From: an uncultured Erysipelotrichaceae bacterium
GTDB taxonomy: Bacteria; Bacillota_I; Bacilli_A; RF39; UBA660
Direction: 5' to 3'
Assembly (NCBI GenBank): GCA_902789225.1
Contig: CADANC010000002.1
Span: forward strand, 103,167 to 167,166
Length of the DNA: 64,000 nucleotides
Below the pieces are notes generated by a model, which had not been told where the DNA came from, did no database searches, and was given only the letters and a program-made list of their open reading frames with translations. A program made the position numbers and the translations under genes. Shown here in pieces: positions 3,578-19,951 of the stretch; positions within the stretch are counted from its first letter, which is position 1; each line of letters starts with the position of its first letter.

Positions 3578-4339
3578 TTAAGCAGCTCCGCCGCTTCCGT
3601 CTCCACTTTCTTCAAATGTAGCGTTGTTGTATGCAAGAGCAATGTTAGAAGCAACTTCACCGTATTTAGCCATAGCAGCATTAAATGCACTTTGTAAACT
3701 ATCTTCACCTTGAGATAACCATTTAAAGATTGTAGAAATAGCTTCTAATAATCTTTCAAAGCATCCTTCGATAGCGTCAGCTTGTCCTCCACCGATGAAT
3801 GAAGTAGCTGCATCTAATTTGTCTTTTTCAGCAGTCATTTTTGCTTTAATATCTTCTTGAACTTGTGATAAGTTATCACTTACTGCTTTAACTCCAGCAT
3901 CATCTAAAACAACGTTTCCTGATCCATCTTGAGCTTCAATTGCTGAAACATCTAAATCAAGATCGATTTGTTTAAATTCAGGAAGTGTTATATCTCCTGT
4001 GCTTTCTGTTCCAGTTCCTGAAGTATTATTGAACCAGGTTTGTCCTGCTGATTCAATATCCTTACGGAATCCATCAAAACAATTGAATATTGTTTCTGAT
4101 GTTGATTTTACTACTTCTTTAAGACTGTTTCCATCAGCATCTCCACCACCTTCTTTTGTATCAGAACCAAAGAACTTGCAAGCTTCTGGTGCATACCATG
4201 CAGTACTAATTGGAGTTACTATTTCTTCCTTTAGTGTTTCTACAATACCATCAACGCAATTTTCATATGCTTCTGAAATTGGTGTACTTAAATCAGCTAC
4301 ATTCTGTGGGTTATAACCGTGTAATCCGTCATCTGCCAT
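3578..4339 (-). CDS. Tandem (fused) WXG100/EsxA-like secreted protein candidate
   Basis: Two ~100-aa halves with central turns STAWYAPEA and SFIGGGQAD; directly downstream of esaB; strong AAGGAGG SD. Confidence 0.65.
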   Translation of the reverse strand: MADDGLHGYNPQNVADLSTPISEAYENCVDGIVETLKEEIVTPISTAWYAPEACKFFGSDTKEGGGDADGNSLKEVVKSTSETIFNCFDGFRKDIESAGQTWFNNTSGTGTESTGDITLPEFKQIDLDLDVSAIEAQDGSGNVVLDDAGVKAVSDNLSQVQEDIKAKMTAEKDKLDAATSFIGGGQADAIEGCFERLLEAISTIFKWLSQGEDSLQSAFNAAMAKYGEVASNIALAYNNATFEESGDGSGGAA

Positions 4340-4442
4340 ATTTTTAAATTCCTCCTTACTTTGATACCTTTGTATCTAATTATATGATATCATTTTTTTT
4401 TATAATTTTTAGTTTTTTTCTTTTTTTTTACATTTTTTTACA

Positions 4443-4703
4443 TTATTTTGCTGATAACAGTAATATTTCAGTTCCATTTTCAATATCAGTGTTTGATATT
4501 TGGATATTATTTTGGTAGATTTCCAATGTATTTTTGTTTATTAATATATAATTTTTACTTGTATCCAACGATTTTAAAGTTAGATCACTTACTGATTTTA
4601 CTAGCATTTTTTTTACTTTCCATAATATTTCATTGATCGGTATAAATATGTCAAAGCATTCATCTATTTCTGGAATTATTAATTTTATTAATACTTTATT
4701 CAT
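4443..4703 (-). CDS. esaB: EsaB/YukD-like ubiquitin-fold T7SS protein
   Basis: 86 aa, FDIFIP...WKVKKML...IENGTEILLL ubiquitin-like pattern; overlaps the essC stop. Confidence 0.8.
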   Translation of the reverse strand: MNKVLIKLIIPEIDECFDIFIPINEILWKVKKMLVKSVSDLTLKSLDTSKNYILINKNTLEIYQNNIQISNTDIENGTEILLLSAK

Positions 4704-7700
4704 CAATTTCTTCTCCTTCTTCGCCTTCTTCTACTGCTGTACTGTCATTCCTATGAAAATCTATAAATTTTAGACGAAAAGCATCTGATTCTTTTAAATA
4801 ATAACCATATTCTGTTCTGATATTTTCACTCATTTCTTTTGTTACCTTATTTACTCTAAATGTTGATTGATTTCCAAAACCTTTTCCTATCCAAATTCCA
4901 TCAGTAGCATTTTTTATAGACATAAACCATTGAGCTGTATCTGAGAATTTAATACCTTTAAATCCATCAATTACAATTAGATTACTATTGTCGCTCTTTT
5001 TAATTGAACTTGCTAATGCTTCAATATTTTCTTTTTTATCTAGCTTGTTAATAAATTTCTCAATTCCAAAGATGATATAAACTATGTTTAATTCTGGAGT
5101 TTGAGTAATTTTGTTTTCTACATCAACTAGATTTTTTACATTTGCTTCAAAGTTTTCATTAATATATGAAATTCCTTCTCTATTTGCCTCTGAAAATTCT
5201 TTTGTTCCATCTATAAATACTATTGTTAAATTTTTTATTTGTGTTAATACATCTAGCAATGATAAAACAAAATTCTTTGTGTAATCAATAGTATTTGCTG
5301 TTATTAATGTTGTTGCATATTCATTGAAATTAAATAGTACTGGATTAAGACTATCTCTAGCAATTCCTATAGGTACATTTGAAATCTTATCAATCTTATC
5401 TTTTATCATGTCCATAGTAACAACTTCTGGTAATTCAGGTATTGGAGTAGCTTTCTCAGGCATTTTTTCAATTGTTTCTTTAGTAAATTGATCTAATAAT
5501 TCACTTTCACTATGATCTTCATCTACTAAAGAGGCAGTTTGAAATTCGTGAATTCCACCATTGTATGCTAAACCTCTTCCAAAAATATCTCTAGGTTTAT
5601 TTTTTACTCTAACTCCGAATACTGTTGTATAGTCTGCTTTATCATTTAGTTTTAATACATATTTGTTTTTCATAGCTTGAGAAGCTCTTCTACTAACTGA
5701 TGCAAATGAAGTACAAGTTATTATCATTATTATTCCGTATCTTTCACAGTCTCTTACAATAGGTGTTATCAATGTTGATAAGTCTCTTGTAGCTTCAGTT
5801 ACTCCTTCATAGTTGTTGATAATTACTACCATTTGTTTTAATTTTTTTTCGTTTTTATTATTATAATTTTCAATTGATCCACCATAATCAGTCAACAATT
5901 TTTTTCTTTCTTTAATTGTTGTTCTGATTAATTTGAAAAGATTATTAAATCTTTCATCTTCTCCTATAAAGACCATTCCACCTATTTGAGGTAAGTTACT
6001 AAACATACGAAGTTCTTCTGATCCATAATCAATAATATATAAATTAACTTCTGAAGAATCATGATATTTACATATTGAATATAATATTGTGTTTAGAAGT
6101 TTTTCATTTTCAGGCATTTCGTTTCCGATGATCATTGTATTACCATCTTCTTTTAATGAATATGTTAATATACCTTGTTCTTGAATTTCAGGAGCGTCAT
6201 ATTCACCTATTATTGCTTTTACATCATATTTTTCATCCTGAACATTATATTTTTCATGTAATGAATCATTTGTAATTATTGGGTCAATGTTATTAAGCCA
6301 TAATCTTCTTGCTTTTTTGTTCTCTTTATTAGATACTTCTATAATACTTTTTAATATTGCTGATATTTGTTCGCCTTGTTCTTCAACTTTGTTATTATTG
6401 TTTCCTGATTGAATACTTTTAATGAAAGCTCCTGTATCATCAATAAAGTTAACACTTCTATCAACTTGTTTAATTATTTTTTCTGAAGGATAATACTTAG
6501 CTCCGCACCATGCAGATTGTCCTAAGGCAAAATACTCATCATAACCAACTTGTAGATAGAATCTACCTGTTTGTTTTAATGATGCTGCATCTGGTCTTTT
6601 TAACATTTCTCTTGAATCTGATGCATCTTGAACTTTTAAACATACTCTAAATTTTGTATTAGACCAAATTTGTTCATTAACAACTCCTGATGGTTTTTGA
6701 GTAGCTAGAATCAAGTGAACTCCAAGTGAACGTCCGATACGGGCAACACTTATTAGGTTAGACATAAACTCTGGTTGTTGAGATTTTAATTCGGCAAACT
6801 CGTCGCAGATTATAAATAAATGTGGTACTGGTTCTGTTAGTTTTCCTTCTTTGTAGAATCCTTGATATTTATAGATATCAATTGTACTTTCATTTAATTG
6901 ATCTCTTGCTTCATTAAATATTTTTTGTCTTCTTTTTACTTCACTATCTATACTTACTAAAGTTCTATCCATTTCAGCTTTGTCTAAGTTTGTAATAGTT
7001 CCTGCTAGATGTGGAAGATAAACATTTGTAACTTTGTTTTCAAAAGCTCCAGCTAAACCTCCACCTTTGTAGTCTATTAATATAAAGGCTACATCTTCAG
7101 GACTATAATTAATTGCCATAGATAAAATATATGTAATTATAAATTCAGATTTACCTGAACCAGTCATACCTGCAATAAGTCCGTGTGGTCCATGATATTT
7201 TTCATGCAAGTCTAAATACATTAAATTTCCATCTGCGTCTAATCCAACTTCTGCTTTTAAACTTTGAGTTGAATCATTTTGGTTCCATCTATTTAAAATA
7301 TTCAATTGTTCAACTTTTCCTACTTTTTCCATTTCTAAGAATGTTACCGCATCAGGTAATTGTGTATTTCCTTCTTGGAATTCAATAGGTATATTTGATA
7401 ATTTTTTACTTATAGACATCATGTTAATTGTATAATTGATTTCATCCATAAATGTTAATTGTTCTTGTCTTTCAAAAGAATTCTTAAGTACTCCTGAAGC
7501 ATTCTCACCTAGTGAGATAAAGTTATTACATTTACTTGGTAAATTAGTTAAAGATTTTTCAATTATTACAAAACTAAATCCTAAAGGAGCATCTGCTTCT
7601 GTAGCATTTTTTATAAATTCCAATCTTTTTAACTCACTATAATTATCAATAAATATTAAATAGTATGGTTTAAATAGTGGAACACTACTACCACCTTCTC

Positions 7701-9288
7701 CGACATATGAATATCTAAGTTGGAATTCGGCTTCTAAATATTCTGATACCCTTTTTGCAGATTCAGGATTAGATGAGAAAAATCTAAATGATTTTTCGTT
7801 ATTAAAATTATGATTTAAATATTTTATATAATCCCATTTATCTTCATTTTCTTTTGTTGTAAAGACTACTATTTTTAAATCTTCATAACTACAGAATGTA
7901 AGTATCTGAGTAATGATATTATCTATAAATGGATATATCTTATTTTGATAACCCATAATTGCAGTTATTCTATTTTCAGTGAATGAATAACCTATAGGAA
8001 CACTTGGAATATATTTATAATCAGCTACCATTTGATCAGCTAATTTTTTTAATTCATCTTCATCTATTGTAAATCCTTCTTCTGGATAATTTACTTTTGC
8101 ATCTAATAATTCATTTCCTACTCCAATTCTTACTGTTAAGAAATCTTTTTGTTCTAATCTTCTATCCCAGAAATTCAATTTTGCTGTATTTATTATACTT
8201 AAACACTCTTTTATTGTTATTAAGTTTTCTAATAATATTTCTTTTTGTAAAGATCTCTCTGCTTCTAATTCTTGTCTTTTTGTATTTAAGTAAGTAGTAT
8301 ACTTTTCAATTAATCTTTTTCTTTCTCTTTTAAGTCTCTTTTTATTATATTTTTTAGTTAGTGTTGGCCATAATATCATACTCATTATCATTACTGCTGA
8401 CATGATAAGTTGTGGTAAGACACTTTCTAAATCTCCTGTACCATCAATTAACTTGCTTAATCCTCTATATAACATTGTACCTGACATAACACCCATAGTT
8501 AGCATTGGTCCAATAGTTAATATAAAAGGTAAATCTTCTTTTTTATCTGATTTTGGAGGTGGACTTAATAGTATTTCTTTTGTTGTTATAGTTCTTTTTA
8601 ATCTTGGTGTCTTAGTGAAATAGTCTTCTTTATCATACAAATTTACATCTTTTAATTCTATATCTTGGTAATCCTGTTCTTGATTAAGTCCATATTCGCT
8701 TATAGACATAGTATTTATACTTACCATATTATTTGGGTTATTTATTAAGATTAATTCTTTCAAAAAGATCATCTTAAAACCAAATATATTTATTTGATCA
8801 CCATTTTTTATGTAATATTCATTTAATTCTAATATCTTTTTATTTATATATATTACTGATGATTTGCTTTTTTCTAGTATTATTTGTCCATTTTTATTAT
8901 ATATTTTTATAGGACTATCAAGATAATCAAAATTATAAATAATTGAGCAATCACTACTATTACCGATGGTTAAGTCTATATTTGCATCATATGAGTATGC
9001 TTTAAAACTGTTATCGAATATATCTGATATATATATTAGGTAATTAATTTCATCTCTTCTTAATACATAGTAATTATTTGGAGTAATTGGAACCTCTTCT
9101 TCTAATTGATTACCATTTAAAACTGAAACATCACTAGTAGAATATAATACCCATTTTCCATCTCTAGCTTCTATATTTATTAACTTTGTATCAGTATTAT
9201 CATTTTCGTCAAAACTAAAACTACCAAAAACTTCTTTTGGTAGATTGAATGATACTATTTGATTAATTAAGAATAAATATATTTTCAT
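4696..9288 (-). CDS. essC: Type VII secretion FtsK/SpoIIIE ATPase EssC
   Basis: 1530 aa: FHA-like N-terminus, two TM helices, LDLHEKYHGPHGLIAGMTGSGKSE Walker A, IDYKGGG, DEFAELK, RIGRSLGVHLILATQKP, then two degenerate ATPase domains. Confidence 0.95.
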   Translation of the reverse strand: MKIYLFLINQIVSFNLPKEVFGSFSFDENDNTDTKLINIEARDGKWVLYSTSDVSVLNGNQLEEEVPITPNNYYVLRRDEINYLIYISDIFDNSFKAYSYDANIDLTIGNSSDCSIIYNFDYLDSPIKIYNKNGQIILEKSKSSVIYINKKILELNEYYIKNGDQINIFGFKMIFLKELILINNPNNMVSINTMSISEYGLNQEQDYQDIELKDVNLYDKEDYFTKTPRLKRTITTKEILLSPPPKSDKKEDLPFILTIGPMLTMGVMSGTMLYRGLSKLIDGTGDLESVLPQLIMSAVMIMSMILWPTLTKKYNKKRLKRERKRLIEKYTTYLNTKRQELEAERSLQKEILLENLITIKECLSIINTAKLNFWDRRLEQKDFLTVRIGVGNELLDAKVNYPEEGFTIDEDELKKLADQMVADYKYIPSVPIGYSFTENRITAIMGYQNKIYPFIDNIITQILTFCSYEDLKIVVFTTKENEDKWDYIKYLNHNFNNEKSFRFFSSNPESAKRVSEYLEAEFQLRYSYVGEGGSSVPLFKPYYLIFIDNYSELKRLEFIKNATEADAPLGFSFVIIEKSLTNLPSKCNNFISLGENASGVLKNSFERQEQLTFMDEINYTINMMSISKKLSNIPIEFQEGNTQLPDAVTFLEMEKVGKVEQLNILNRWNQNDSTQSLKAEVGLDADGNLMYLDLHEKYHGPHGLIAGMTGSGKSEFIITYILSMAINYSPEDVAFILIDYKGGGLAGAFENKVTNVYLPHLAGTITNLDKAEMDRTLVSIDSEVKRRQKIFNEARDQLNESTIDIYKYQGFYKEGKLTEPVPHLFIICDEFAELKSQQPEFMSNLISVARIGRSLGVHLILATQKPSGVVNEQIWSNTKFRVCLKVQDASDSREMLKRPDAASLKQTGRFYLQVGYDEYFALGQSAWCGAKYYPSEKIIKQVDRSVNFIDDTGAFIKSIQSGNNNNKVEEQGEQISAILKSIIEVSNKENKKARRLWLNNIDPIITNDSLHEKYNVQDEKYDVKAIIGEYDAPEIQEQGILTYSLKEDGNTMIIGNEMPENEKLLNTILYSICKYHDSSEVNLYIIDYGSEELRMFSNLPQIGGMVFIGEDERFNNLFKLIRTTIKERKKLLTDYGGSIENYNNKNEKKLKQMVVIINNYEGVTEATRDLSTLITPIVRDCERYGIIMIITCTSFASVSRRASQAMKNKYVLKLNDKADYTTVFGVRVKNKPRDIFGRGLAYNGGIHEFQTASLVDEDHSESELLDQFTKETIEKMPEKATPIPELPEVVTMDMIKDKIDKISNVPIGIARDSLNPVLFNFNEYATTLITANTIDYTKNFVLSLLDVLTQIKNLTIVFIDGTKEFSEANREGISYINENFEANVKNLVDVENKITQTPELNIVYIIFGIEKFINKLDKKENIEALASSIKKSDNSNLIVIDGFKGIKFSDTAQWFMSIKNATDGIWIGKGFGNQSTFRVNKVTKEMSENIRTEYGYYLKESDAFRLKFIDFHRNDSTAVEEGEEGEEIDE

Positions 9289-9349
9289 AGCAACACCCTC
9301 TATTTACCTATTATGATTATAACATAAATGGCTTAAAAAAAAAGATATA

Positions 9350-10183
9350 TTACTTTTTAAATATATCTTTTTTTTCTTTTTCTGTTGTTTTTTCTTGGTA
9401 TATTGTTTGAAAACTATCGACTATATCAATCAATTCCTCAGTTAGATATCTGTTTTTGTACTCCATATATTCTTCTGGGACACCATAGTATGCTTCGGCT
9501 ATTCCACCTGTCATGCAAGCTAAAGTATCAGCATCTCCTCCAAGTGATATTACATTTCTTATACTATCTTCAAAATCTTCTCCTTCTAAGAACGCTTTTA
9601 TTGCATAAGGAACTGATCCTTGGCATGTTATATCATATTGATATTTTCTATAGATATCTTTAATATTGAAATCCAAGTTATAATATTTATTTTCAATATA
9701 TTCTCTTATTGTTTCTTTATCTTCATGAGTGCGTGCTAAGTATATAGCTGCTGCTATAGCTTGTGCACCTTTAATACCTTCAGGATGATTGTGAGTTACT
9801 TCTGCCTGTGCCTTAGCTAATTCCTCAGCTTCTTCTAAACTATTAGCAATATAGGCAACACTGGATGTTCTCATAGCTGATCCATTTCCAAAACTATTAT
9901 ATGGTTCATGAATATCTGACATAAGCCATTTATAGAATGACGTCCCATAACCTGCTTTTGGATATTTTCTTCCGAGTTCAACCATATTATTTATGACATT
10001 TAATTTGAATAAAGGTATTGATCTATTATCAGTATAATCAATCGATGCTTTAGCAACTGCACATGTCATTACTGTGTCGTCTGTAAAAAAACATTTATCT
10101 TTAAAAAATTTAAAGTTTTTTTGTTTTATTGTATGAAATTCATAAACAGAACCAACAATATCTCCTATTATAGATCCGTTCAT
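9350..10183 (-). CDS. ADP-ribosylglycohydrolase (ARH/DraG family), candidate immunity protein
   Basis: GSIIGDIVGS, FTDDT, SFGNGSAMR, THNHPEG and GGDADT motifs. Confidence 0.92.
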   Translation of the reverse strand: MNGSIIGDIVGSVYEFHTIKQKNFKFFKDKCFFTDDTVMTCAVAKASIDYTDNRSIPLFKLNVINNMVELGRKYPKAGYGTSFYKWLMSDIHEPYNSFGNGSAMRTSSVAYIANSLEEAEELAKAQAEVTHNHPEGIKGAQAIAAAIYLARTHEDKETIREYIENKYYNLDFNIKDIYRKYQYDITCQGSVPYAIKAFLEGEDFEDSIRNVISLGGDADTLACMTGGIAEAYYGVPEEYMEYKNRYLTEELIDIVDSFQTIYQEKTTEKEKKDIFKK

Positions 10184-10470
10184 CTTTTCTTTACTCCAGA
10201 CGCTTCTTTTAATACATTTTCAATACTGTCATCATTAAATAATACTACATTATTAGAAGTGTTTTCATTATCAGAATTGGCTTTCTTTCCTTTATAATGA
10301 TAATAAACATCCTTATAATAAACATTTCTACCAACTATAGTAACTGGATCTTCAATTTCTTTTAATTTAAGAGTAGTACCTATTTCATATACTTTTGTCT
10401 TTTTATCAAAGTTTTCATTATGTGAAAATTCATTTATATCAGTTATAAATCTATCTATATTATTATTCAT
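10180..10470 (-). CDS. DUF4176-like small protein (T7SS effector-associated)
   Basis: EIGTTLKLKE...VTIVGR...YYHYKG...LFNDDSIENV resembles the DUF4176 pattern PIGSVVxLK..MIxGR..YDY.G..FNxEDI; lies between the effector and the ARH gene. Confidence 0.6.
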   Translation of the reverse strand: MNNNIDRFITDINEFSHNENFDKKTKVYEIGTTLKLKEIEDPVTIVGRNVYYKDVYYHYKGKKANSDNENTSNNVVLFNDDSIENVLKEASGVKKR

Positions 10471-10506
10471 ATATGGCTCCTTTTTGTATTTATTATAACA
10501 TAATTA

Positions 10507-13500
10507 CTAATACAATATACATGGTACTATTACGAATTCTTTACGATATTTTTTATTATCTCTTGGATTAGTTAGTTCTATTTTTTCCATGTATGGTTCT
10601 TGTATACATACTAATTCTTGATTTGGACCTATAATTACTTCGTTTTGAATATATCCACCTACTGATGAGAATGGTTCTATATATGATGCTGAACTTCCTT
10701 CAGGAACAATAATTTTTAAAATTATATTTCTATCTCTATATTCAGGGCTTGAGGCTATTACTTGTAAATCTTCTAAGCTTATTGTTGTGCTTTTAAATCC
10801 AACTTTACATGAGTCACCAACATCAATTAATTTTCTCTTTTTTGCTCCTGCAAAATCAGCTGCCATTTGATATGTTGTTATTGTTGCAGGAATTCTATTG
10901 TTATTAATATATAAAACTAAATTAGCTAATGCTTCTGATGTTGTTGTATCTATTCCTAATTCTTCCTTATATAATGATGCTAAATCTACTTTTTCAGGTG
11001 TTTTAAGGGCTTGTTGGAACAATTTATATCCATCCATTATTGTATAGATATATATAGCATTTCTCTCTGCTTCAGTCATATTTTCTAGCATCTTTTTATA
11101 TAATCCGGTATCAAAATTTGACATAATAGTAGCAATCAACATATTCTCTTCTTCTGTTAAAATCGGTAATGCTTCATTTGCCTTCATGAAATCATTTACC
11201 ATCTGTTCTAGATCTATCTCGTCATTTGTTAATCCTTTATATGCGAATGCTGTTGTTAAAATATCAAAACCTTCCTCACTTAATTGTAATCCAGAATTCT
11301 TAAGCTCTGATTTTATTTTCATCTTTAACAATTCAAAATTTCTTTTTGGAGAAACTCTTTCTAATACTCTAAATTCATCACATATTGAATCAATTTTATT
11401 TACATATTTAAGTTTTATACCTAGTCTTTCAGCAATTGTAGCATTAGACATTATATTAAATAAAATTCCAGCTGGATTACTAAAAAACTCTGCTGCTCCA
11501 TTTCTATCTTTAAATTCAATAACACTGTGTCCTGTTTTCTCCATTAAATACTTTTGGAATGTAAGATTTGGATTGATTTTTAATTCTTCTAAGAAATCTC
11601 TTACTAGACCAACATCTTTTGTAGTTATTTCTGATTCACCTACATCTTCTACAATTGGAGTAGCAATATTGTTTGCTAATTCAGTTAGTGTTGGTGTATT
11701 TGAATCATCCGCTTCAATAACATGAGTTGAATCAAGTGATAATGTAGTAGGTGCTGCAACATCAATGTCTTCACTTGTTGTTGGGCCAAGATTTTGGTTT
11801 GAATCATTGATTGTTGGAGCCACCGTTGGTCCTGTTATGTTGTCTGCTAATGATAAATCTACTTTATAAACAGCACTTCTACTATGGCTATATCTTCTTA
11901 AACTTTCAGGAATAAATCTATATTTTTTACTCCATGATGATACTATTATTTCACCTGCTTCAGTTACTCCTGTTATTAACATGGCATGTCCACCGACATT
12001 TTCCTTAATTCTTCCTACAGTTCTAGAACTTGCTGTTGCTGCATCTACATTTTCACCAGTTTGTGAGGATGTACTAAGAAGTTCTAAATCGAATTCGGCT
12101 GCTGAAAGAATGTGGAAAGATCCTGGACTTGAAACTATTGAAGATAATAGGTTTGCTCTTGCGTTTGGTCCTGCATCAAAATGCTTTGTTTCTAATTTTA
12201 TTCCTCTCTCAGCTAGATATTCAGTTATGTATTTTACATATCTTCCTTTATAACCTAAGTTATCTATAATACCTGCTTTTAAATTTTCTAATTTTCCATT
12301 AGTTTCTTTTGCTACACCTGAAATGCAGAAAGATATTGCTAGAAATTCTTCTGTATATTTTCCATCTATTTGCATAGGAATTCCAAATGCTCTCTCATAT
12401 ATTTCTGCTCCATTTTCAATAGATGATAGATATTGTGTTACCGTATTTGCAAAAGCCATATAAGCACATCCTGATGGACCATACAGTTTAGCTAATCTCA
12501 TTTTTATAATTCTTTGTTCTCTATAAGACATTGTTGCTAATTCAGGGAAGAAGGTACTAATCATATCGCTGATACGGCTTCCCATCTCCATTTCAAACAT
12601 ACTAACGCTTGAATTGAAGAATGAGTCTAAATATAATTCTGGATTGCCTTGATAGCCACCATAAACATCTCCAGCAAACAAACCATCTGTTAAAGTCTTT
12701 ACTCCTGCAAATAACCCTTGTGTATTTTCTACTTTTTCTATAGTAAGTGAGTTAAAATCCATACGTTTTGTTTTTAGTTCTGATATTATGCTGTTTAAAT
12801 CTATGACTCCACCTTGTGAGGCTACATATAATACTTTTGTTATTCCGTCTTCAATATAAGTCATCTTATATAGGCTGTTATCATCTACACTTACACCATC
12901 TACCATGTCTATCTTCATATCGCCTAAATATGTGATTGATTTTAGTTCTGCAGTCTGTCCAGTTTGGTGATCATAACCAAAATCTATACCTCCATATTGA
13001 CTTTTCTTTATTGCTGTATATTCTATACCATCTACTACATATGTTGCTTGATATAGTCCTTGTTGTAGATTTCCAACATATAAAACATCGCGAACTAGAT
13101 TAGGCGTAAAGCTAATTATTTTAAAGTTGCCACTAATTATTGATTCAACCATAGTAGAATCTCTAAAGCATTCTGAAATACTAATTTCTACTTTATCGTC
13201 AATACTAAATGGAGTTGATACCTGTATAGTGGTTGTTTCACCATTTGCTTCTATAGTTAAATTATAATGTGAATATGATGAATCAGCTATTATTTTAACT
13301 CTAGCATCAGAATCTATAATCATATTTGGTTGTAAACTTTGTGGTGCTGAAGCTATTACTTTATGCGCTATATTTTCTTTTATAGTCTTAAGATTGTTTC
13401 CTAAACTAAAGATTTTACTATCTAACTCCGCTATTCCTGACGAATAGTTACCTAGTGATTGGAATAGTTCATTAACAGAATAATAAAGGGTTGAATTTGA

Positions 13501-16500
13501 TTCAAAATCACTTACGCTTGTTACTTGAGTAAGTTTTTCAAATAAAGCTGCAACTGAAGGATTAAATCTATTATCAATTACACTACTTTTTATATCTAAA
13601 CTACTTAATCCTTCTAAGAATGTAGTCATTTCACCAGCATCAAAAGTTCCTATAGTTGAAACAATTGCATCATTTGCTATCCACCAGTTTTGTGTATCTT
13701 TCATTCTTGAAATAACTGTTGCTAATTCTGAAGCGGTCATACTATTAATAAATTGTCTCATTGCTGAAGTATTCATTATTTTATCGAATGATTGTTGAGT
13801 GCCAGAAGTTAAATAAGGTAATAGCATTCTTGCTTTTGAATCAGTATCTAAGTTCATAGTTAATAATGAATCTATTTTTGTACTTCCAGCTAACTTATTT
13901 AAGAATACTGGATCTTTAATTAATTCAAATGTAATATCATTTCCAAGTTGAGAATAAATAGGTGACTTCATTAATGTATTTAAGAATACTTCTTTAAATA
14001 TTTCCGATGTACTAAATATTGCTGGAGGTGAAGTTGTGTTTTTAATGTCATTGATTATTCTCTTATTAGATTCAAAGTTTTGGCTTCCAGGTTGTAATGC
14101 TTGTACCCTCATGTAAACATATTGGAAACCATCGACAATCTTAAATGCAGTTTCACAGATTTGTGAATTGGAATGCGCTGGAATAATATTCTTTAATTTA
14201 GCTGCTAACTCAGGGTGTTCACTTAGATAATTCATATTAGCAAAATTACTAATTAAATCTGTATAGAAACTATCTATTACACTACTCCATTGACCATTTC
14301 CTAAATTGCTATATAAAACATCAAGATTTAATGAGCTACAACTATCCAAAAACTCTGAAAGTTGTTCAGCATTATATCCAAAAATAGTATTTTTTATTGT
14401 TGGGCTTACTATCCAACTATATGTGTTTGAACCCATATTAGTAAGTAAATTACCTAATTGAGTTGGTGACATATTTTGTATGAGATTTGCTGCACCTCTA
14501 CTGTGATATAAGTATGTACTAAAATGAGTTGGAGTCAACACTGAGAATATGGATTGTTCTCTTGATATTGATTTTGATGCTTCTTCTAAATGTACATCTA
14601 AAACCCATGTTCTATCTTCTAATAGACATTGTGCAAATATTGGATTTTCTAATAATTTTAATAAAATACTAGTATCAACAGTTGAATTAAATTTTCCATT
14701 ATTCATTAATTCACGAATAAACCATCTGTGGAAAGTATCAACATCTGCAAATTTTATAGGAACATCTGTTGCAGAAATATTGTTTACTGCATCTAAAATA
14801 CTTAGTGCTTCACCAACTTTTACAAAATTTATTGTATCTGCATACCTTTCGAATTGATTAGCTTCTATGTTTGAAGTGAATGTTGAATATAACATACTTG
14901 AGAAGTCTTGTCCTAGTATTGTATATAAAGAATGTATATTTTGAGATGATCCTGTCAACATTAATTGGGTATAATTAGCAATTATTTCATGGTATGCTGC
15001 TATTTCTCTATCTATAGCTGTTCTTGGTCTAGTTTTTTTCTTATCATAATAGTCATAATAATCTGCTGAATGTCTATAAGTTATATATATTTGTCTTCCA
15101 CTAAGATCTTGATTTCTACCATAAGTTAAAGCACTTATAATATCAGATAATGCACACGCATCAGAAAATTTTGTTCTTGCTATTCTATCATTAATTTTTG
15201 ATATATTAGCATTAATTATTGCTTGAGCAGCTTTATTTGCATCAAATCCATTATTATTAAAATCATTAACTAGATTTTCTATTAAATCAGAATGGTATCC
15301 AAGCTTTACTAATGTTTCTGTAAGATTGTTTATTGTTGTTTGTTTCATAAATACTGCTTTAAAACCTAGAGATCTAGCTAGTGACTGTTTATATTGTGCT
15401 ATTGTTTTTCGTTTAGTTCGCATCAATTCGTCTTCATAATCGATTTGTGCTTGTGACTCACAATATTGTTGTACTTGAGATAAATAGTTCTCTAATTGTC
15501 CCAGTGTATGTGCGGCATTTCTATCATATGTCATTCTATTTCTTGCATCCTGAGATGCACTATACCATGTTGTAGGAATTATTTCGTGAGAAATATAATA
15601 GTATAAGGCATGTCCTAATTCGTGCATGATAGTTCCTTGATCTAGCATAGCTGTATGAAGTTTACCAATTTCTATATTTGATCCAGATGAACTAAAGTGA
15701 CAATCTGAATATGTTTGTGAAGTTATGCAAAAATTAGGGTCCATTTGTTTTATTTTCATTATTGTTCTTATAACTTGAGGTGCATATGGATTCCCTTTAG
15801 TATATGCCATTGATAGTGTTTGGTATAGCAAAGATACTGCTTTAGGATCACTTTTTCTTCCTGAGTCTAATGCATTCTGGAACTCAGTAAATAATATGTT
15901 TGTGATTTGTATTGATTCAAAATAAGCATTATTTACTCTCTCTATTGCTCTAGCAAATTCAAATTCATCTACTCTATATAACATAGGTTCTGTGATTGTT
16001 CTTGATAAATCTTGAAAGTTTCCTGTTCTACCAATTTCAGTTAGGTATGTTAATACATCTTCATAAGTTTGGAACCTTGATCCACCGGCATATGCTTTTG
16101 CTACTTCGATCATTTTTTCTTGTAATTGTAATACTTTATTATAAGAAGTTATTCCTTCATATATAGACGTATAGTCAAATTTTCCAGTAAATGATGCGTA
16201 TTTATTATAATTTACTTTTATTGTTTCTAATTCAGAATAGTTAAAATCTTTAGGGAACTTTATATCTTGCAATTGCTGTCCACTGATATATGCTTCTACT
16301 AATCTTGAAGCTTCCGCTGGGGTAATTTTACATTCTTTAGCAACATTATCTATTGCATTTTGTATATCAACATTCATTTTATTAGTTATATTTCCATTTA
16401 TTCTATCTAAAGCAGTTGTAACTTCAGAAATACTGTATCGACTTATGATAGATCTGCAATTGGCCCTAGTTGTAATAAGATTTTTTTGTCCTGTTCGTAC

Positions 16501-19500
16501 ATAATCATACATTTGTTTAAGAGCTCCCACTGTTGTTAAATCTAGTCTTTCTCCAGTTTTTACCATTGCTAATAATGTATCATTATATATTTGTTGTTCT
16601 CTTGTAATATTTGATAAATCTCCAGGAGGGTGAAATTGTCCTGAGTATAGTGAAGTTGGTCCACTGTATTCTTGTGCTACCTTTACAGTTTCTGCTATAG
16701 ATGGAGCTTCAAAGCCGTGAATGATACCACTTATTCTTCTAATAATTTCTTCTTTAGTTATTTGTTTTGCTTGTTGTTCTACAAGGCCAAATTCAATTAG
16801 TTTGTAAGCATCTAGCGCTTCTTGTTCTTGTTGTGTTAATTCTTCTCCATTCATTTGTTTAGCTACTGCATCGTTAAATACAGCTCCAGCTTTTAATGAC
16901 TGTAATGCCTCTTGAAATGTAGCACCACTTTGTATTTGTCCAATTACCTCTTTAATTGAATATCTATCATTAACTTTTTCTGATGCCTCTTGTTGTGCAA
17001 CATTATAATTAATAGCGTCAATAAATTGTTGAGATGCTGTTTTACTCGTATCGATATGACCATCATACATACCGTTTGCTATACCATATGAAGTAAGAGC
17101 TGTTGTTTTGGCACTTCCGAATGCACCGAATACCAAACCTGAGAAGAAACCTCCTTTAAATGCTTGGATTAATTGGTCACGAAAGTCATCTCTTAATCTC
17201 ATACCAATTTCTTCATCAGTTAATCCTAATTTTTTGTAATGCTCTGCTGCTACCTCTATTTTACTTTTATCTTTAGCAATAACTAAATCAAAGAATGTAT
17301 TCAATAATTCAGTACAAAATTCTTCTTCACCTTCTGCAATTCCTTGACTAATTGAACCTGCTACACAAAAAACTAATTTTGAAACAAAATCTTGTGCTGC
17401 TTTACTTGTAAATAAATCTCCACACCTACCAGCTAAACTTTTTGTTACTGAGCCTAACGCTCCTTCTAGATTAAATAAGTGTCCTAATGAGTATGATTCC
17501 ATTGCAGTTTCAACAATAGCAGATGTTGTTGCTAATAAAACAGCTTGGGCATCTGTTAATCCTCTATCAAGTGATTCATTTAATGTTGAAACATATGCTC
17601 TTGAACCCATTAAAGTAGCACTTAATATTGCATTAACAGCCAATCCTGCTCCACCGGTAAAATAAGTAACCGCTATTAAAGATAAGGAATCTGCCATAGA
17701 CATACCTGTATCATATACAAATTGCCATGTTTCTCCGTATTTATCTCCTATGTTATAGCTTACTCGTTGTCTCATTGTGTCGCCAGAACTATAAACATCA
17801 CATCTTGCTATTTTATATCCTTGTGCTACAGCACTATATGAATGAATAGCTGCACTAATTCCTTCAAATGGTGTTCCTATTACTGACCATAATGAGGCTA
17901 AGAAAGGATGTTTATCGGCAAATTCTTGATCTAATTCTTGTTGACGATATAGCCATCTTTCATCTAGTTTATCAGCTAAATTTACTTCTTCATCATTTAT
18001 GAAGTTTAAATAATCATATAATTCTTCTATAGGGTGTTCTGAGGTGTTCATTATATAATTAAGAACAGCTATTTCTTCTTCTGATAATGGTAAATTTCCC
18101 TCTCCATCTCTTTGTGATAGCCAATCTATATAGTGTTGAAGTAATGGATCATCTGAGGCATATTGATAAGCTTGACCATTCTTAAATACATATGCTGAAG
18201 GAGGAATCTCTCCATTTGCCATAGCTAAAATTAATCTAACTATATCTTCTTTGTTGTTAATAAATTTTGTTTGTGGGCCACCATTATATGTCCATGCATA
18301 TGGTTCATCATCTGGAATAATGTTATTAATATAGTCTGTATTAGCTGGATCATATGAACAGTTGTCTAAAAAGTCATCATTTCTAGTATATTTTCTAATG
18401 TTGTTTTCATAATATAGGTATTCATTTTCTACATAATTTTTTACGCCTCTACAATATTCTATTTCGCTAACTAGTGCATCTATTCTTGCATCTAATTCTG
18501 CTACTCTTTTTGCTCTACTTTCTCTATGTTCAGCGGCTTTATCTAACATATCAAGATAGAATTCTCTTGTAGCTTCATCATAGTTATCCCATCTATGAAC
18601 TACTTCATCATCTCTAAACCAATGATCTATTGTTTGTTCATAGCAATGTTCTTTTATTTGTTGTAAATACTCACTATCACCATACATTTCTTCATAAGTT
18701 AGTGGGGTATACATATAATTGCTACCATAGTTTCCTTGATAAGCCATATCATCGTATGGGTTTGAATATACATATTTGGTTTCATCTGTATCCGGATCAA
18801 CATATGACCATGCTACAGGTTGATTCAATGCTTGTTCTAGAGTATATCCTTCATTTAATTTTATTATTATTTGTTCTACTGCATCTAATTCATGATCATC
18901 AGCTTTATTTCTTTCTTCTATTAATTTTGCTAATTCAGTTTCTTTGTCATTTAGATATGCATCAAGTTCTTCCATGCTATTAAATACAAAGAACGGATAA
19001 TCTTTTGATCTTATTGATTGAATCATGCTATTTTCAACCAATTTTTTATATCGTTCACTACCTATTTTATCTGCTTGTATTTCTTCAAATAGTTGTTTAA
19101 CTGTTATTTGGCCATTTAAAATTTTATTTATATCTTCTTGCTCAATACCAAGAGAAGACAATTGGGCAACAAAGTCATCTGTTATATCTTCTGCTGTTAG
19201 AGTACCATCAACATCATGTCCAGTAATTATATATGCTCTTCCATCATGAAAGAAATATTCGTTATCTGGAATATCTTCAGGGGCATACATTGACATACCT
19301 GTACCTGCTACTTTTATTTCAGTACCTTCTCCTTTGCCCATTCCTGTGTTTGAACCACCTGCTGTATTTTTTCCTGCATTTCCCCCTTCATAGCTAGCAT
19401 CTGGGCCATCACTTGCTTTTAAGTCAGGTCCGTTACCATCTGTGCCGCCAGCTTTAATTTCTCCTCCAGAAGTCATTTGCATATCTGTACCAGCCCCGTT

Positions 19501-19857
19501 ACCACCGGCTTCACCACCAGTACCTCCTGTTTCAAATGAAGTTGATCCTGTTTGATTTGCATTTCCTCCTGTGCCACCTGGATTTGCTCCACCATCACCT
19601 GATGGATTATAAGCTGATGAGTCTTCTCCACCTGATTGGCCTAGACCTTCTGTTCCATCACCGGCTACTTTATCTGATGTAGTCTCTGGGTTTCCACCTG
19701 GTCCATCTGACTCTTCTGTAAAGTCATAAGATTCAGTCTCTTGGCTTGGGTCTACACTTGTATTTTGAGTTGTTGTGTCAGTTGTTACTTGACCACTTTT
19801 TGTTTGACCTGATGCATCAATATCACCACCAATAAAACCTTTTATTACAAAACCCAT
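10507..19857 (-). CDS. Giant (~3116 aa) multidomain putative polymorphic toxin: Gly-rich N-terminus, hydrophobic region, HEXXH metallopeptidase-like, papain/C39-like and C-terminal ADP-ribosyltransferase-like domains
   Basis: Motifs HELGH, GCAYMAFAN...GGHAMLITGV...SSW and AIYIYT...GFKSTT...IIVPEGS...YI...QNEVII. ATG at 19857 preferred because the track's GTG at 19866 lies within the AGGTG SD. Confidence 0.8.
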   Translation of the reverse strand: MGFVIKGFIGGDIDASGQTKSGQVTTDTTTQNTSVDPSQETESYDFTEESDGPGGNPETTSDKVAGDGTEGLGQSGGEDSSAYNPSGDGGANPGGTGGNANQTGSTSFETGGTGGEAGGNGAGTDMQMTSGGEIKAGGTDGNGPDLKASDGPDASYEGGNAGKNTAGGSNTGMGKGEGTEIKVAGTGMSMYAPEDIPDNEYFFHDGRAYIITGHDVDGTLTAEDITDDFVAQLSSLGIEQEDINKILNGQITVKQLFEEIQADKIGSERYKKLVENSMIQSIRSKDYPFFVFNSMEELDAYLNDKETELAKLIEERNKADDHELDAVEQIIIKLNEGYTLEQALNQPVAWSYVDPDTDETKYVYSNPYDDMAYQGNYGSNYMYTPLTYEEMYGDSEYLQQIKEHCYEQTIDHWFRDDEVVHRWDNYDEATREFYLDMLDKAAEHRESRAKRVAELDARIDALVSEIEYCRGVKNYVENEYLYYENNIRKYTRNDDFLDNCSYDPANTDYINNIIPDDEPYAWTYNGGPQTKFINNKEDIVRLILAMANGEIPPSAYVFKNGQAYQYASDDPLLQHYIDWLSQRDGEGNLPLSEEEIAVLNYIMNTSEHPIEELYDYLNFINDEEVNLADKLDERWLYRQQELDQEFADKHPFLASLWSVIGTPFEGISAAIHSYSAVAQGYKIARCDVYSSGDTMRQRVSYNIGDKYGETWQFVYDTGMSMADSLSLIAVTYFTGGAGLAVNAILSATLMGSRAYVSTLNESLDRGLTDAQAVLLATTSAIVETAMESYSLGHLFNLEGALGSVTKSLAGRCGDLFTSKAAQDFVSKLVFCVAGSISQGIAEGEEEFCTELLNTFFDLVIAKDKSKIEVAAEHYKKLGLTDEEIGMRLRDDFRDQLIQAFKGGFFSGLVFGAFGSAKTTALTSYGIANGMYDGHIDTSKTASQQFIDAINYNVAQQEASEKVNDRYSIKEVIGQIQSGATFQEALQSLKAGAVFNDAVAKQMNGEELTQQEQEALDAYKLIEFGLVEQQAKQITKEEIIRRISGIIHGFEAPSIAETVKVAQEYSGPTSLYSGQFHPPGDLSNITREQQIYNDTLLAMVKTGERLDLTTVGALKQMYDYVRTGQKNLITTRANCRSIISRYSISEVTTALDRINGNITNKMNVDIQNAIDNVAKECKITPAEASRLVEAYISGQQLQDIKFPKDFNYSELETIKVNYNKYASFTGKFDYTSIYEGITSYNKVLQLQEKMIEVAKAYAGGSRFQTYEDVLTYLTEIGRTGNFQDLSRTITEPMLYRVDEFEFARAIERVNNAYFESIQITNILFTEFQNALDSGRKSDPKAVSLLYQTLSMAYTKGNPYAPQVIRTIMKIKQMDPNFCITSQTYSDCHFSSSGSNIEIGKLHTAMLDQGTIMHELGHALYYYISHEIIPTTWYSASQDARNRMTYDRNAAHTLGQLENYLSQVQQYCESQAQIDYEDELMRTKRKTIAQYKQSLARSLGFKAVFMKQTTINNLTETLVKLGYHSDLIENLVNDFNNNGFDANKAAQAIINANISKINDRIARTKFSDACALSDIISALTYGRNQDLSGRQIYITYRHSADYYDYYDKKKTRPRTAIDREIAAYHEIIANYTQLMLTGSSQNIHSLYTILGQDFSSMLYSTFTSNIEANQFERYADTINFVKVGEALSILDAVNNISATDVPIKFADVDTFHRWFIRELMNNGKFNSTVDTSILLKLLENPIFAQCLLEDRTWVLDVHLEEASKSISREQSIFSVLTPTHFSTYLYHSRGAANLIQNMSPTQLGNLLTNMGSNTYSWIVSPTIKNTIFGYNAEQLSEFLDSCSSLNLDVLYSNLGNGQWSSVIDSFYTDLISNFANMNYLSEHPELAAKLKNIIPAHSNSQICETAFKIVDGFQYVYMRVQALQPGSQNFESNKRIINDIKNTTSPPAIFSTSEIFKEVFLNTLMKSPIYSQLGNDITFELIKDPVFLNKLAGSTKIDSLLTMNLDTDSKARMLLPYLTSGTQQSFDKIMNTSAMRQFINSMTASELATVISRMKDTQNWWIANDAIVSTIGTFDAGEMTTFLEGLSSLDIKSSVIDNRFNPSVAALFEKLTQVTSVSDFESNSTLYYSVNELFQSLGNYSSGIAELDSKIFSLGNNLKTIKENIAHKVIASAPQSLQPNMIIDSDARVKIIADSSYSHYNLTIEANGETTTIQVSTPFSIDDKVEISISECFRDSTMVESIISGNFKIISFTPNLVRDVLYVGNLQQGLYQATYVVDGIEYTAIKKSQYGGIDFGYDHQTGQTAELKSITYLGDMKIDMVDGVSVDDNSLYKMTYIEDGITKVLYVASQGGVIDLNSIISELKTKRMDFNSLTIEKVENTQGLFAGVKTLTDGLFAGDVYGGYQGNPELYLDSFFNSSVSMFEMEMGSRISDMISTFFPELATMSYREQRIIKMRLAKLYGPSGCAYMAFANTVTQYLSSIENGAEIYERAFGIPMQIDGKYTEEFLAISFCISGVAKETNGKLENLKAGIIDNLGYKGRYVKYITEYLAERGIKLETKHFDAGPNARANLLSSIVSSPGSFHILSAAEFDLELLSTSSQTGENVDAATASSRTVGRIKENVGGHAMLITGVTEAGEIIVSSWSKKYRFIPESLRRYSHSRSAVYKVDLSLADNITGPTVAPTINDSNQNLGPTTSEDIDVAAPTTLSLDSTHVIEADDSNTPTLTELANNIATPIVEDVGESEITTKDVGLVRDFLEELKINPNLTFQKYLMEKTGHSVIEFKDRNGAAEFFSNPAGILFNIMSNATIAERLGIKLKYVNKIDSICDEFRVLERVSPKRNFELLKMKIKSELKNSGLQLSEEGFDILTTAFAYKGLTNDEIDLEQMVNDFMKANEALPILTEEENMLIATIMSNFDTGLYKKMLENMTEAERNAIYIYTIMDGYKLFQQALKTPEKVDLASLYKEELGIDTTTSEALANLVLYINNNRIPATITTYQMAADFAGAKKRKLIDVGDSCKVGFKSTTISLEDLQVIASSPEYRDRNIILKIIVPEGSSASYIEPFSSVGGYIQNEVIIGPNQELVCIQEPYMEKIELTNPRDNKKYRKEFVIVPCILY

Positions 19858-19931
19858 ACTAAACACCTACTCTATTCTTATTCTATTATACTATTATTAG
19901 TATACCAAAATTCCTATCACTTTCAAAGAAA

Positions 19932-19951
19932 AAAGCAACAAAATGTTGCTA
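19932..19951 (-). terminator. Intrinsic terminator after the 214-aa ORF
   Basis: agcaaca-aaa-tgttgct hairpin followed by a T-run on the minus strand. Confidence 0.55.

Follow-up and report, generated by a model that had tools for sequence, protein, structure and literature searches.

A giant open reading frame (ORF) in the genome of an uncultured Erysipelotrichaceae bacterium raises the question why three different toxin-like catalytic modules should be joined in one polypeptide and, if they act as toxins, how the producing cell would be protected from each of them. The ORF lies in a stretch of 64,000 nucleotides (assembly GCA_902789225.1, contig CADANC010000002.1, positions 103,167 to 167,166), which is called the window in the following; the source genome assembly comprises 1.6 Mb with 27% G+C and is 96% complete. 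An earlier note on this DNA had described a single polypeptide of about 3100 amino acids (aa) with a zincin-like, a papain-like, and an ADP-ribosyltransferase (ART)-like part. Here, we suggest that the ORF encodes a predicted polymorphic toxin, which is exported by a type VII secretion system (T7SS) and carries three warheads matched by three immunity genes, a reading to which we assign a probability of about 60%. The parts of the ORF that matter for this reading are the following:

10507 to 19866, minus strand: giant ORF, 3119 codons from GTG; probable ATG start at 19857, giving 3116 aa
19267 to 19866, minus strand: aa 1-200, Gly/Thr/Ser-rich and, by composition, probably disordered N-terminus
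14857 to 15894, minus strand: aa ~1325-1670, zincin (gluzincin-like) metallopeptidase module, as predicted from an AlphaFold2 (AF2) model, VIA matches, and invariant residues
12682 to 14769, minus strand: aa ~1700-2395, helical and then beta-rich region without a family, delimited from BLAST tables
11842 to 12669, minus strand: aa ~2400-2675, papain-like (clan CA, C39-like) cysteine peptidase module, as predicted from model, VIA, and alignment
10510 to 11799, minus strand: aa 2690-3119, variable C-terminal cassette with Thr/Pro-rich linker, helical region, and ART, from Pfam and homologue alignment

The giant ORF is one intact frame, and together with an identical database protein of 3116 aa (P0002) this bears out the single polypeptide of about 3100 aa. 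AGGTG is located 6 nt ahead of ATG 19857, and a TATAAT-like box and a terminator-like hairpin are found further upstream. Because of this spacing and the length of the identical protein, translation probably starts at M4, so that the residue numbers, which throughout this text count from the GTG (3119-aa numbering), are 3 too high for the real protein. The catalytic motifs were all found at the residues given earlier, each of them once by regular-expression search of the giant protein: HELGH at 1415-1419, which is the sole HExxH, HEIIA at 1626-1630 containing E1627, GPSGC with C2467, GGHAMLITGV with H2627, IVSSW at 2641, STT at 3026, and QNE at 3074-3076. The N-terminus is Gly/Thr-rich as had been noticed, with 49 Gly and 24 Thr in residues 1-200, and it is poorly conserved among homologues (31-58% identity per bin). 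The hydrophobic block that had been mentioned next to it corresponds to a Gly/Ala/Ser-rich region, aa 650-935, which holds the sole 19-residue window (728-754) with a Kyte-Doolittle value of at least 1.3. No Sec-type signal peptide was seen in the giant protein on inspection by eye, and searches of NCBIfam, PHROGs, PADLOC, and PDB sequences with the whole protein yielded nothing useful. A BLAST comparison of the giant protein with itself showed no repeats at E<=0.01. A second high-scoring segment pair against the homologous locus L021 hints at a weak duplication, with aa ~1690-1850 and ~1936-2094 as the two copies.

Three predicted catalytic modules in one polypeptide

For each of the three modules there is fold or family evidence, so that the claim of three different catalytic modules holds at the level of prediction. 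The zincin module, which did not match any Pfam peptidase family, was modelled by AF2 within aa 1200-1720 on the basis of a 9-sequence alignment, with a predicted local distance difference test score (pLDDT) of 78.6 and a predicted template modelling score (pTM) of 0.70. The model presents three short strands (model residues 181-200), followed by a helix (211-227) that bears HELGH (window 15610-15624), and a later helix with E1627 as the candidate third metal ligand. H1415, E1416, G1418, H1419, H1599, Y1603, Y1604, and E1627 are invariant in all 14 aligned sequences, including carriers that are only 21-30% identical. In the structural comparison with VIA, the anthrax lethal factor (LF) catalytic domain 1yqy_A ranked first (Z 8.8, root-mean-square deviation 3.8, 164 aa), and further rows were the Certhrax N-domain (8.5), the N-domains of LF (7.3) and of edema factor (EF; 7.2), and the Pro-Pro endopeptidases PPEP-3 (7.0) and PPEP-2 (6.7). 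Ranks 1-6 and 8 span the zincin module and are all LF-like or M34 proteins, while rank 7 is an unrelated helical match of 69 residues. An Atlas search with this part led mostly to unnamed clusters, apart from one named cluster with Peptidase_M90 on 20% of its members. A scan of genome contigs with alignment A1 found no relative.

For the papain-like module, AF2 modelling of aa 2380-3119 was good at aa 2409-2675 only (pLDDT 65-90), and the module ends at KVDLSLAD (2668-2675). C2467 (model residue 88) stands at the start of helix 87-102 and H2627 (model residue 248) at the start of strand 248-255; both are invariant in all seven carriers of the module. The top 37 of 50 VIA rows are all clan-CA peptidases with Z 6.4-9.3, among them UfSP2 (9.3), PeiR (9.2), a tegument DUB (9.0), interpain (8.7), SpeB (8.5), IdeS (8.2), and the C39 domains of ComA and PCAT1 (7.7). 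There is no Pfam family for the module in the giant protein itself; the homologous module of a giant protein in genome G021 matches Peptidase_C39_2 (28.6 bits, cut-off 24). Between the Cys and the His, at aa ~2480-2620 (window 11900-12400), the sequence diverges locally to 47-57% identity in the homologue P0003 and in the homologous locus L022, as compared to about 80-100% per bin in the rest of the trunk of these two. The region of aa ~1700-2395 ahead of the module travels with it in proteins of the genomes G034 and G251, whose matches cover aa 1957-2675.

The ART domain (aa 2918-3085, window 10612-11115) is the only part of the giant protein with a Pfam family over cut-off, namely ADPrib_exo_Tox (PF03496). 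Against a cut-off of 23.4 bits, the whole protein scored 24.1 and the last 430 aa, when scanned by themselves, 31.4. STT3026 aligns with STS of Vip2 and QNE3074-3076 with EKE of Vip2, and Vip2 and C3 are the best PDB sequence rows. STT and QNE are retained in all three homologues that possess the ART. The earlier note had named conservation of the motifs in homologues as a test, and conservation is what the sequences gave for the catalytic residues of the zincin (14/14), the papain-like module (7/7), and the ART (3/3), for the two peptidase modules across carriers with an identity of no more than 20-30%; since they are kept in distant relatives, the motifs are more than chance.

Partner genes and the exchange of the C-terminal cassette

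In the toxin suggested here each of the three modules seems to have its own protective gene, and the following genes are candidates for this role or move with the cassette:

1834 to 2283, minus strand: 149-aa ORF, candidate immunity protein or inhibitor of the zincin, homologues of which adjoin zincin-ending proteins
19952 to 20596, minus strand: 214-aa ORF, candidate immunity protein or inhibitor of the papain module, upstream of the giant gene, with homologues by papain carriers
9350 to 10183, minus strand: 277-aa ADP-ribosylglycohydrolase, candidate ART immunity protein, in the swapped cassette (Pfam ADP_ribosyl_GH, E 2e-35)
10180 to 10470, minus strand: 96-aa DUF4176-like gene, candidate toxin-specific chaperone (Ltc type), in the swapped cassette (Pfam PF13780)

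Related genomes were scanned twice, at first 61 genomes, in which the trunk was matched piecewise in four others, and then 251 genomes of the same family including the source genome (G000). The zincin module occurs in seven of the 251 genomes. In the related loci compared by local BLAST, it forms the C-terminal end of the protein in G003 (678 aa), G265 (1467 aa), G191 (1287 aa), G262 (964 aa), and G063 (805 aa). In each of these five the next ORF encodes 74-86 aa that are 38-50% identical to the conserved C-terminal domain (~70 aa, alignment A4) of the 149-aa ORF. For a 632-aa zincin carrier in G170, which lies on a 3.2-kb contig, no partner ORF was found. The C-terminal 74 aa of the 149-aa ORF have a match in eight of the 251 genomes; zincin and partner domain are both present in five, whereby they are adjacent in all four besides the source genome, and G003 is an additional case. 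When a complex of the zincin module and the C-terminal domain of its 149-aa partner was predicted, the score of 0.00 gave no verdict and counts neither way.

A similar picture was obtained for the papain module, which was matched in 10 of the 251 genomes, with the family of the 214-aa ORF in eight and both together in six. They stand close together in all five genomes besides the source genome: G034, G251, G238, and G202 have them side by side, and in G021 the partner lies about 1.3 kb beyond the end of the giant gene. Proteins that end in the module, with a homologue of the 214-aa ORF (208-223 aa) following, are encoded in G251 (890 aa), G034 (2608 aa), and G238, the latter with two scored papain-ending proteins of 696 and 713 aa and three partner genes. 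The order is reversed in G202, where the homologue comes ahead of a 513-aa protein with the papain module at its end. A protein of >6600 aa in G021 carries the module internally, with the homologue 1.3 kb past the end of this protein. The 214-aa ORF has its own terminator-like hairpin and is kept upstream of the giant gene in the loci L020, L021, and L022. Two of these regions are worth describing in their own right: on L017 (G238:C3:58000-76000) three tandem partner genes of 221-223 aa alternate with the papain-ending proteins of ~700 aa in a toxin/immunity-like array, and L011 (G021:C32) bears an open frame of >6600 codons (6816 by genome search) with the papain module near its N-terminus (residues 813-1036).

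By chance, co-occurrence would be expected in ~0.2 genomes for the zincin and its partner and in ~0.3 genomes for the papain module and its partner, as compared to the five and six observed; this is an indication and not a test, because related genomes are not independent. On account of the C-terminal position of the modules and the dedicated small neighbour gene, we read the zincin and the papain module as putative toxins in their own right, rather than mere processing domains, and the 149-aa and 214-aa ORFs as candidate immunity proteins or inhibitors.

It might be that the tail, be it the ART or its alternatives, is the sole toxin, and that zincin and papain module are releasing or processing peptidases which the small partners keep inactive. 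This would fit the eight close homologues, whose variation is confined to the tail, with both peptidase modules placed in the conserved trunk. Furthermore, the papain module ends (aa 2675) where the variable cassette starts (~2690), and this junction is the usual site of a releasing peptidase in polymorphic toxins, as described in the parts of Zhang et al. (2012; PMC3482391) used here. The zincin domains of polyvalent proteins are also thought to process the polypeptide, according to the passages of PMC5512222 considered here. Such a role would leave the proteins from the five zincin-ending genomes (G003, G265, G191, G262, and G063) with nothing downstream to release, and the papain module is itself C-terminal in G034, G251, G238, and G202. 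Moreover, a conserved small gene of its own adjoins each peptidase module, as is the case for toxin domains. Thus, we consider a toxin with the tail as its one warhead unlikely, yet still as an alternative to be taken seriously, and prefer three warheads.

The third predicted warhead, the ART, is part of a cassette which is demonstrably swappable between strains. A search of 5.8 billion proteins returned 76 hits among 7474 candidates, of which nine are full-length-type homologues (55-100% identity) and the other 67 are proteins of ~3300 aa that match 10-11% of the query. The trunk (aa 1 to ~2690) is conserved in eight of eight close homologues with 45-100% identity per bin, and HELGH, E1627, C2467, and H2627 are present in the trunk of all of them, whereas after aa ~2690 the identity drops to ~10-30% in five of the eight. 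Three types of tail are observed: the ART (P0001/2, P0003, P0005), an unassigned type of ~520 aa (P0006, P0009, P0010), and EndoU (P0008). In the 251 family genomes the ART cassette gave a match in four, the three others being weak (E 3e-4 to 1e-3), and a word-based search found no shorter proteins with the ART part.

The exchange can be followed on the DNA of L022, a metagenome contig of a near-identical strain with the same locus. Positions 1-10021 of L022 are 92.6% identical to window 21808-11799 and positions 12880-20020 are 97.7% identical to window 9328-2224. In between, window 9329-11798 is exchanged as one block for another tail and one 397-aa ORF. The exchanged block comprises codons 2690-3119, the DUF4176-like gene, which is absent from the L022 allele, and the ADP-ribosylglycohydrolase gene, with the DNA breakpoint at window 11799. 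The 397-aa ORF (L022, 11603-12793) is 56% identical to a 403-aa ORF of L020 (9987-11195); both follow the second tail type, neither has a Pfam family, and they are probably the immunity gene of the ~520-aa toxin cassette. Contigs assembled from DNA run X2, which comes from a gut metagenome, are interrupted at either border of the cassette, and the word depth of the cassette is 9, as compared to 26-27 for the flanks, which hints at a mixed population. Of the swappable modules that the earlier note had envisaged, the ART cassette is therefore confirmed by its exchange between the same breakpoints in L022, whereas zincin and papain module are part of the trunk conserved in nine close homologues. 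As in the polymorphic toxins of Zhang et al. (2012), a conserved trunk bears unrelated tails and the downstream immunity-like gene is exchanged together with the tail. The ADP-ribosylglycohydrolase itself shows weak NCBIfam matches to DraG and Tri1 (Tri1 42.6 bits, cut-off 490), and DUF4176 proteins are described as toxin-specific chaperones of T7SSb toxins in the text of PMC12478183 that we draw on.

The nature of the modules could also suggest a multi-effector toxin directed against animal cells, in the manner of MARTX or the large clostridial toxins, in which case the small neighbour genes would have other roles. The modules would then act like the structurally nearest enzymes of the LF, YopT/AvrPphB, and C3 types. 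By structure the zincin comes nearest to anthrax LF and Certhrax, the best Foldseek rows of the papain module include AvrPphB, Vip2 and C3 are the best PDB sequence rows for the ART, and the Q-x-E form of the latter is known from C3 exoenzymes. Moreover, DNA of the giant gene is present in animal gut metagenomes of 11 studies. What speaks for bacterial targets is the presence of the ADP-ribosylhydrolase and of two cytoplasmic partners linked to the modules. These fit a need of the producer to protect itself, and such a need arises only where bacterial cells can be harmed. The exchange of a cassette among strains that are nearly identical is a typical trait of polymorphic toxins used between bacteria, and neither receptor-binding repeats nor a C80 cysteine protease domain were found by Pfam. 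A host-directed toxin is therefore improbable, and the interbacterial toxin with three warheads remains the preferred reading.

The type VII secretion locus and the N-terminal block

The suggested export route of this toxin follows from the genes downstream of it, and the suggested delivery part from its N-terminal block:

4696 to 9288, minus strand: EssC, T7SSb ATPase of the FtsK/SpoIIIE type, 1530 aa (TIGR03928, 956 bits, cut-off 778)
4443 to 4706, minus strand: 87-aa gene next to EssC, without Pfam or NCBIfam match
3578 to 4339, minus strand: 253-aa gene, conserved in the T7SS locus; homologues follow EssC in G008 and G003
2575 to 3474, minus strand: 299-aa gene, conserved in the T7SS locus; weak WXG100 match below cut-off (E 0.0047); homologues follow EssC in G008 and G003
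2327 to 2575, minus strand: 82-aa gene, conserved in the T7SS locus; homologues follow EssC in G008 and G003
20628 to 20987, minus strand: 119-aa ORF, conserved upstream in L021 and L022 by locus comparison, linked to no module
17047 to 19266, minus strand: aa 201-940, N-terminal block conserved in homologue searches
17062 to 18087, minus strand: aa 594-935, Gly/Ala/Ser-rich amphipathic or hydrophobic sub-block, from hydropathy and homology

EssC begins 1.2 kb downstream of the giant gene, with the same linkage in G008 and L022, and it stands beside giant or module-bearing relatives in G008, G003, G265, G262, and G202. Homologues of the 87-aa gene adjoin EssC in G008, G003, G265, and G202, and in G262 the homologue is found ~5 kb from EssC, beyond the toxin gene; from its size and position one might guess that it is EsaB/YukD. 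The 253-, 299-, and 82-aa genes could possibly encode Esx/LXG-like co-secreted partners. Lap-type targeting factors had no Pfam or NCBIfam match in the small neighbouring ORFs, whereby divergent forms could escape these models. When eight module carriers were scanned with Pfam, the sole result was an LXG match below threshold, in the 513-aa protein of G202. The 119-aa ORF had also been considered as the zincin partner and was rejected, as it was matched in 3 of the 251 genomes, in none of them near a zincin module. Two genes upstream of the toxin locus there is an 861-aa ORF in which an ABC ATPase is joined to an FtsX-like permease (window 22145-24730, minus strand). A 307-aa ORF 9 kb from the T7SS locus (window 28964-29887, minus strand) combines T4SS_pilin (residues 23-78) with NlpC/P60 (residues 175-291) and, judged by these domains, looks like a conjugation-type pilin fused to a cell-wall hydrolase.

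In three RNA libraries from two studies, the giant gene, the three partner genes, and the Esx-like gene have matching contigs with 0-3 differences. Such contigs hint weakly at expression, and DNA carry-over could also account for them. A contig over the 253-aa Esx-like gene (window 3602-4372) had the highest word depth in all three RNA libraries, with 13-30 as compared to 0-8 elsewhere and a flat DNA run; contig depth in RNA libraries is a poor measure which cannot rank genes, and uncovered parts carry no meaning.

The N-terminal block (aa 201-940) is proposed to be the trafficking or translocation part. As a query it found 742 representative clusters at E<=1e-3, 252 at 1e-10, and 83 at 1e-30, and the best 150 of the 742 are almost all proteins of 700-5900 aa with the block near the N-terminus. 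In the annotated collection, 48 proteins contain the block at E<=1e-10; twelve of them have a Pfam family, namely ADPrib_exo_Tox, EndoU, HD, the transglutaminase core, or polyvalent-protein domains. Part of the sub-block, aa 594-927, can be aligned with residues ~260-580 of ~3300-aa proteins that bear PBECR5 and ART-PolyVal, at an identity of 28-29% and a pairwise E of 1e-23 and 2e-27. Such proteins are polyvalent proteins of phages and plasmids, as far as the part of PMC5512222 considered here describes them. Atlas feature neighbours of the block are phage clusters with LPD22, LPD14, MuF_C, and ART-PolyVal, which we take as a lead only. The 2182-aa protein L023:9623-17416 (G109:C3) shares the hydrophobic sub-block only and has no EssC within 35 kb; the ORF after it encodes 415 aa that resemble ADP-ribosylhydrolases, and the 2182-aa protein possibly belongs to the polyvalent proteins of mobile elements.

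From this homology it might be argued that the giant protein, too, is a polyvalent protein of a phage or conjugative element, which is delivered with DNA in order to disarm the recipient, and that the proximity to EssC is accidental or due to later capture. Apart from the homologous aa 594-927, the phage clusters among the Atlas neighbours and the G109 relative, remote from EssC and followed by the ADP-ribosylhydrolase-like ORF, would fit such an origin. Against it, the locus is bounded by the housekeeping genes RF2 and polyprenyl synthase and is syntenic in the second strain (L022), and no phage or conjugation genes flank the toxin within the T7SS locus. Furthermore, the relative with the full N-terminal block in G008 is again located beside EssC, and the cassette contains a DUF4176-like gene, a family tied to T7SS toxins. 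Thus, a mobile-element protein appears very improbable indeed, and a T7SS-exported toxin is what we go on to consider.

Several observations weigh against a T7SS-exported toxin with three warheads and three immunity genes. Regarding export, Pfam gave no match at E<=1 to LXG or WXG100, and likewise none to other T7SS targeting domains, in the giant protein; the genome showed neither an EssB/YukC match nor a WXG100 match over cut-off, which may point to a variant T7SS like that described in the part of PMC11217815 considered here. The N-terminal block was found in only three of the 251 family genomes, and in one of them (G109) not near EssC. Regarding the folds, the VIA Z-scores of 7-9 for the zincin and papain models are in the range which the tool calls middling. 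Foldseek against the PDB had no match at E<=0.001 for the zincin model (best E 0.21), and its top rows for the papain model, though papain-like, contain none at E<=0.001 either (best E 0.011). A profile of 10 zincin modules found among PDB sequences only M3B (E 0.5) and ACE (E ~6). Due to the middling Z-scores and a sequence profile that finds no solved metallopeptidase, we call the module a zincin of LF/PPEP-like fold and do not assign it to M34. Structure prediction by fragments, as the earlier note had proposed it, produced the zincin and papain-like folds but left the linker and the ART unfolded in the AF2 model (pLDDT <50). The ART also lacks a conserved Arg upstream of STT at aa 2900-3026 in the sequence alignment of P0001, P0003, and P0005; Y2999-Q3000 stands at the place of the Tyr-Arg of C3/Vip2, and with three sequences compared a shifted Arg is conceivable.

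Other such points concern the partner genes. The 149-aa gene is 8 kb away from the giant gene and has an extra acidic N-terminus of 75 aa. The DUF4176 match (PF13780, E 2.5e-5, 24.7 bits) is 0.3 bits below the 25-bit cut-off. For the papain module of L022 the identity over aa 2300-2700 amounts to 52-72%, as compared to 94% for the 214-aa gene, and therefore partner and module do not co-vary tightly. It could also be that the small partner genes encode module-specific chaperones instead of immunity proteins. To these has to be added the proposed processing role of polyvalent-protein zincins mentioned above.

If the toxin works as suggested, the EssC machine would export the giant protein while the DUF4176 protein would stabilise the ART cassette, and the N-terminal block, with its partial homology to polyvalent proteins, would serve recognition, passage through the target membrane, or both. 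In the target cell the zincin and the cysteine peptidase would cleave proteins and the ART would add ADP-ribose to its target; the peptidases may also cut the giant polypeptide into separate effectors. The producer and its kin would be shielded by three cytoplasmic proteins, the product of the 149-aa ORF from the zincin, that of the 214-aa ORF from the papain module, and the ADP-ribosylhydrolase from the ART, whose modification it would remove. As a more tentative proposal, to which we would give somewhat less than even odds, the block of ~740 aa could be an undescribed export and entry module, akin to the polyvalent segment and adopted by the T7SS of small-genome gut Bacilli, which carries several independently neutralised enzymes (zincin, cysteine peptidase, arginine-less ART) into the neighbouring cell. 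In that case a single delivery scaffold would serve both the DNA-borne polyvalent effectors and the polymorphic toxins of the T7SS.

Comparison with known systems

To our knowledge, the T7SSb toxins characterised so far have a single toxin domain, which follows an LXG domain. Full-text literature searches, which did not cover supplements, brought up no T7SS-linked protein that combines these modules with one partner gene each; searches for T7SS proteins with two or multiple toxin domains returned only comparative-genomics papers from 2011 and 2012 and an unrelated S8-peptidase system. If our reading is correct, a T7SS exports an LXG-less substrate of 3,100 residues with three enzymatic activities, each matched by a protective gene. 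The locus also defines an N-terminal family (742 representative clusters), a toxin-type zincin with a ~70-aa partner, and a papain-like toxin with a ~215-aa partner, none of them recognised by a Pfam, NCBIfam, PHROG, or PADLOC model. Two fields that are treated apart, namely interbacterial toxins and mobile-element effectors, are furthermore linked through the homology with polyvalent proteins.

With regard to the single modules, the zincin resembles the M34 peptidases (anthrax LF, PPEP-2, PPEP-3) in its fold (Z 8.8 to 6.7 over 140-164 residues) and in HExxH plus a conserved later Glu and Tyr, but it has no sequence-level match to them and contains a helical insert of ~200 residues between HELGH and E1627 as well as the extra invariant His1599. 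The papain-like module shares the clan-CA fold and the placement of Cys and His with papain-like toxin/immunity pairs of contact-dependent inhibition (8ssm, 9l5u) and with C39 domains (ComA, PCAT1), all of them among the structural matches listed, and the adjacent small partner gene is alike; the identity to these structures is only 8-14%, and here a variable insert of ~140 aa separates Cys and His inside a giant T7SS-linked protein. As in the Tre1-Tri1 type, an ART of the R-S-E clade is followed by an ADP-ribosylglycohydrolase gene whose product would reverse the modification, but the context here is a T7SS and not a T6SS, the motif is Q-x-E instead of E-x-E, a conserved Arg is missing, and the Tri1 match is weak. 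MARTX toxins likewise carry several effector domains on one long polypeptide. Their secretion is of type I, they contain glycine-rich repeats as well as an inositol-phosphate-activated C80 protease, and they are directed against eukaryotic targets and are not known to have immunity genes; no such MARTX domains were detected by Pfam in the giant protein.

Regarding secretion, the closest relatives are the LXG polymorphic toxins of the T7SSb, which are accompanied by Ltc (DUF4176) chaperones and by immunity genes located downstream, such as the Tel toxins of Streptococcus intermedius (PMC12478183). Compared to the account in those parts of that source on which we rely, the giant gene is alike in being EssC-adjacent, in the conserved N-terminal part with a variable C-terminal toxin, and in a cassette that is exchanged between strains and with which DUF4176-like and immunity-like genes move. 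It is different in that there is no LXG, that it is about five to ten times longer, that no Lap-type factors were recognised, and that two further enzymatic modules, each with its own partner gene, are located in the trunk. Polyvalent proteins, so far as the material used from PMC5512222 goes, also unite many enzymatic domains in one giant chain, including a zincin-like metallopeptidase and an ART, and aa 594-927 is a truly homologous segment. Here, in contrast, the locus is chromosomal and belongs to a T7SS, with immunity-like cognate genes and a polymorphic C-terminal cassette, and the ART is of the ADPrib_exo_Tox type, not ART-PolyVal.

The constituent parts are of known kinds, since they are listed by Zhang et al. 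(2012; PMC3482391), who, in the portion of the paper used here, describe Tox-ART-RSE with ADP-ribosyl glycohydrolase immunity (Imm-ADP-RGHD) and T7SS trafficking, an anthrax-LF-like toxin metallopeptidase, papain-like toxins including a C39 type, and releasing peptidases, as well as giant actinobacterial proteins that combine LF-like, caspase, and ART domains. It is these giants of the SACTE_5178 type that come closest in architecture, because an LF-like metallopeptidase, a cysteine peptidase, and an R-S-E ART likewise stand in one polymorphic-toxin-like protein. According to the same portion, they are actinobacterial proteins of up to 13,652 aa with caspase and MCF1-SHE domains, whereas the protein described here comes from one small-genome member of the Bacilli and has one module per kind and one identifiable partner gene per module.

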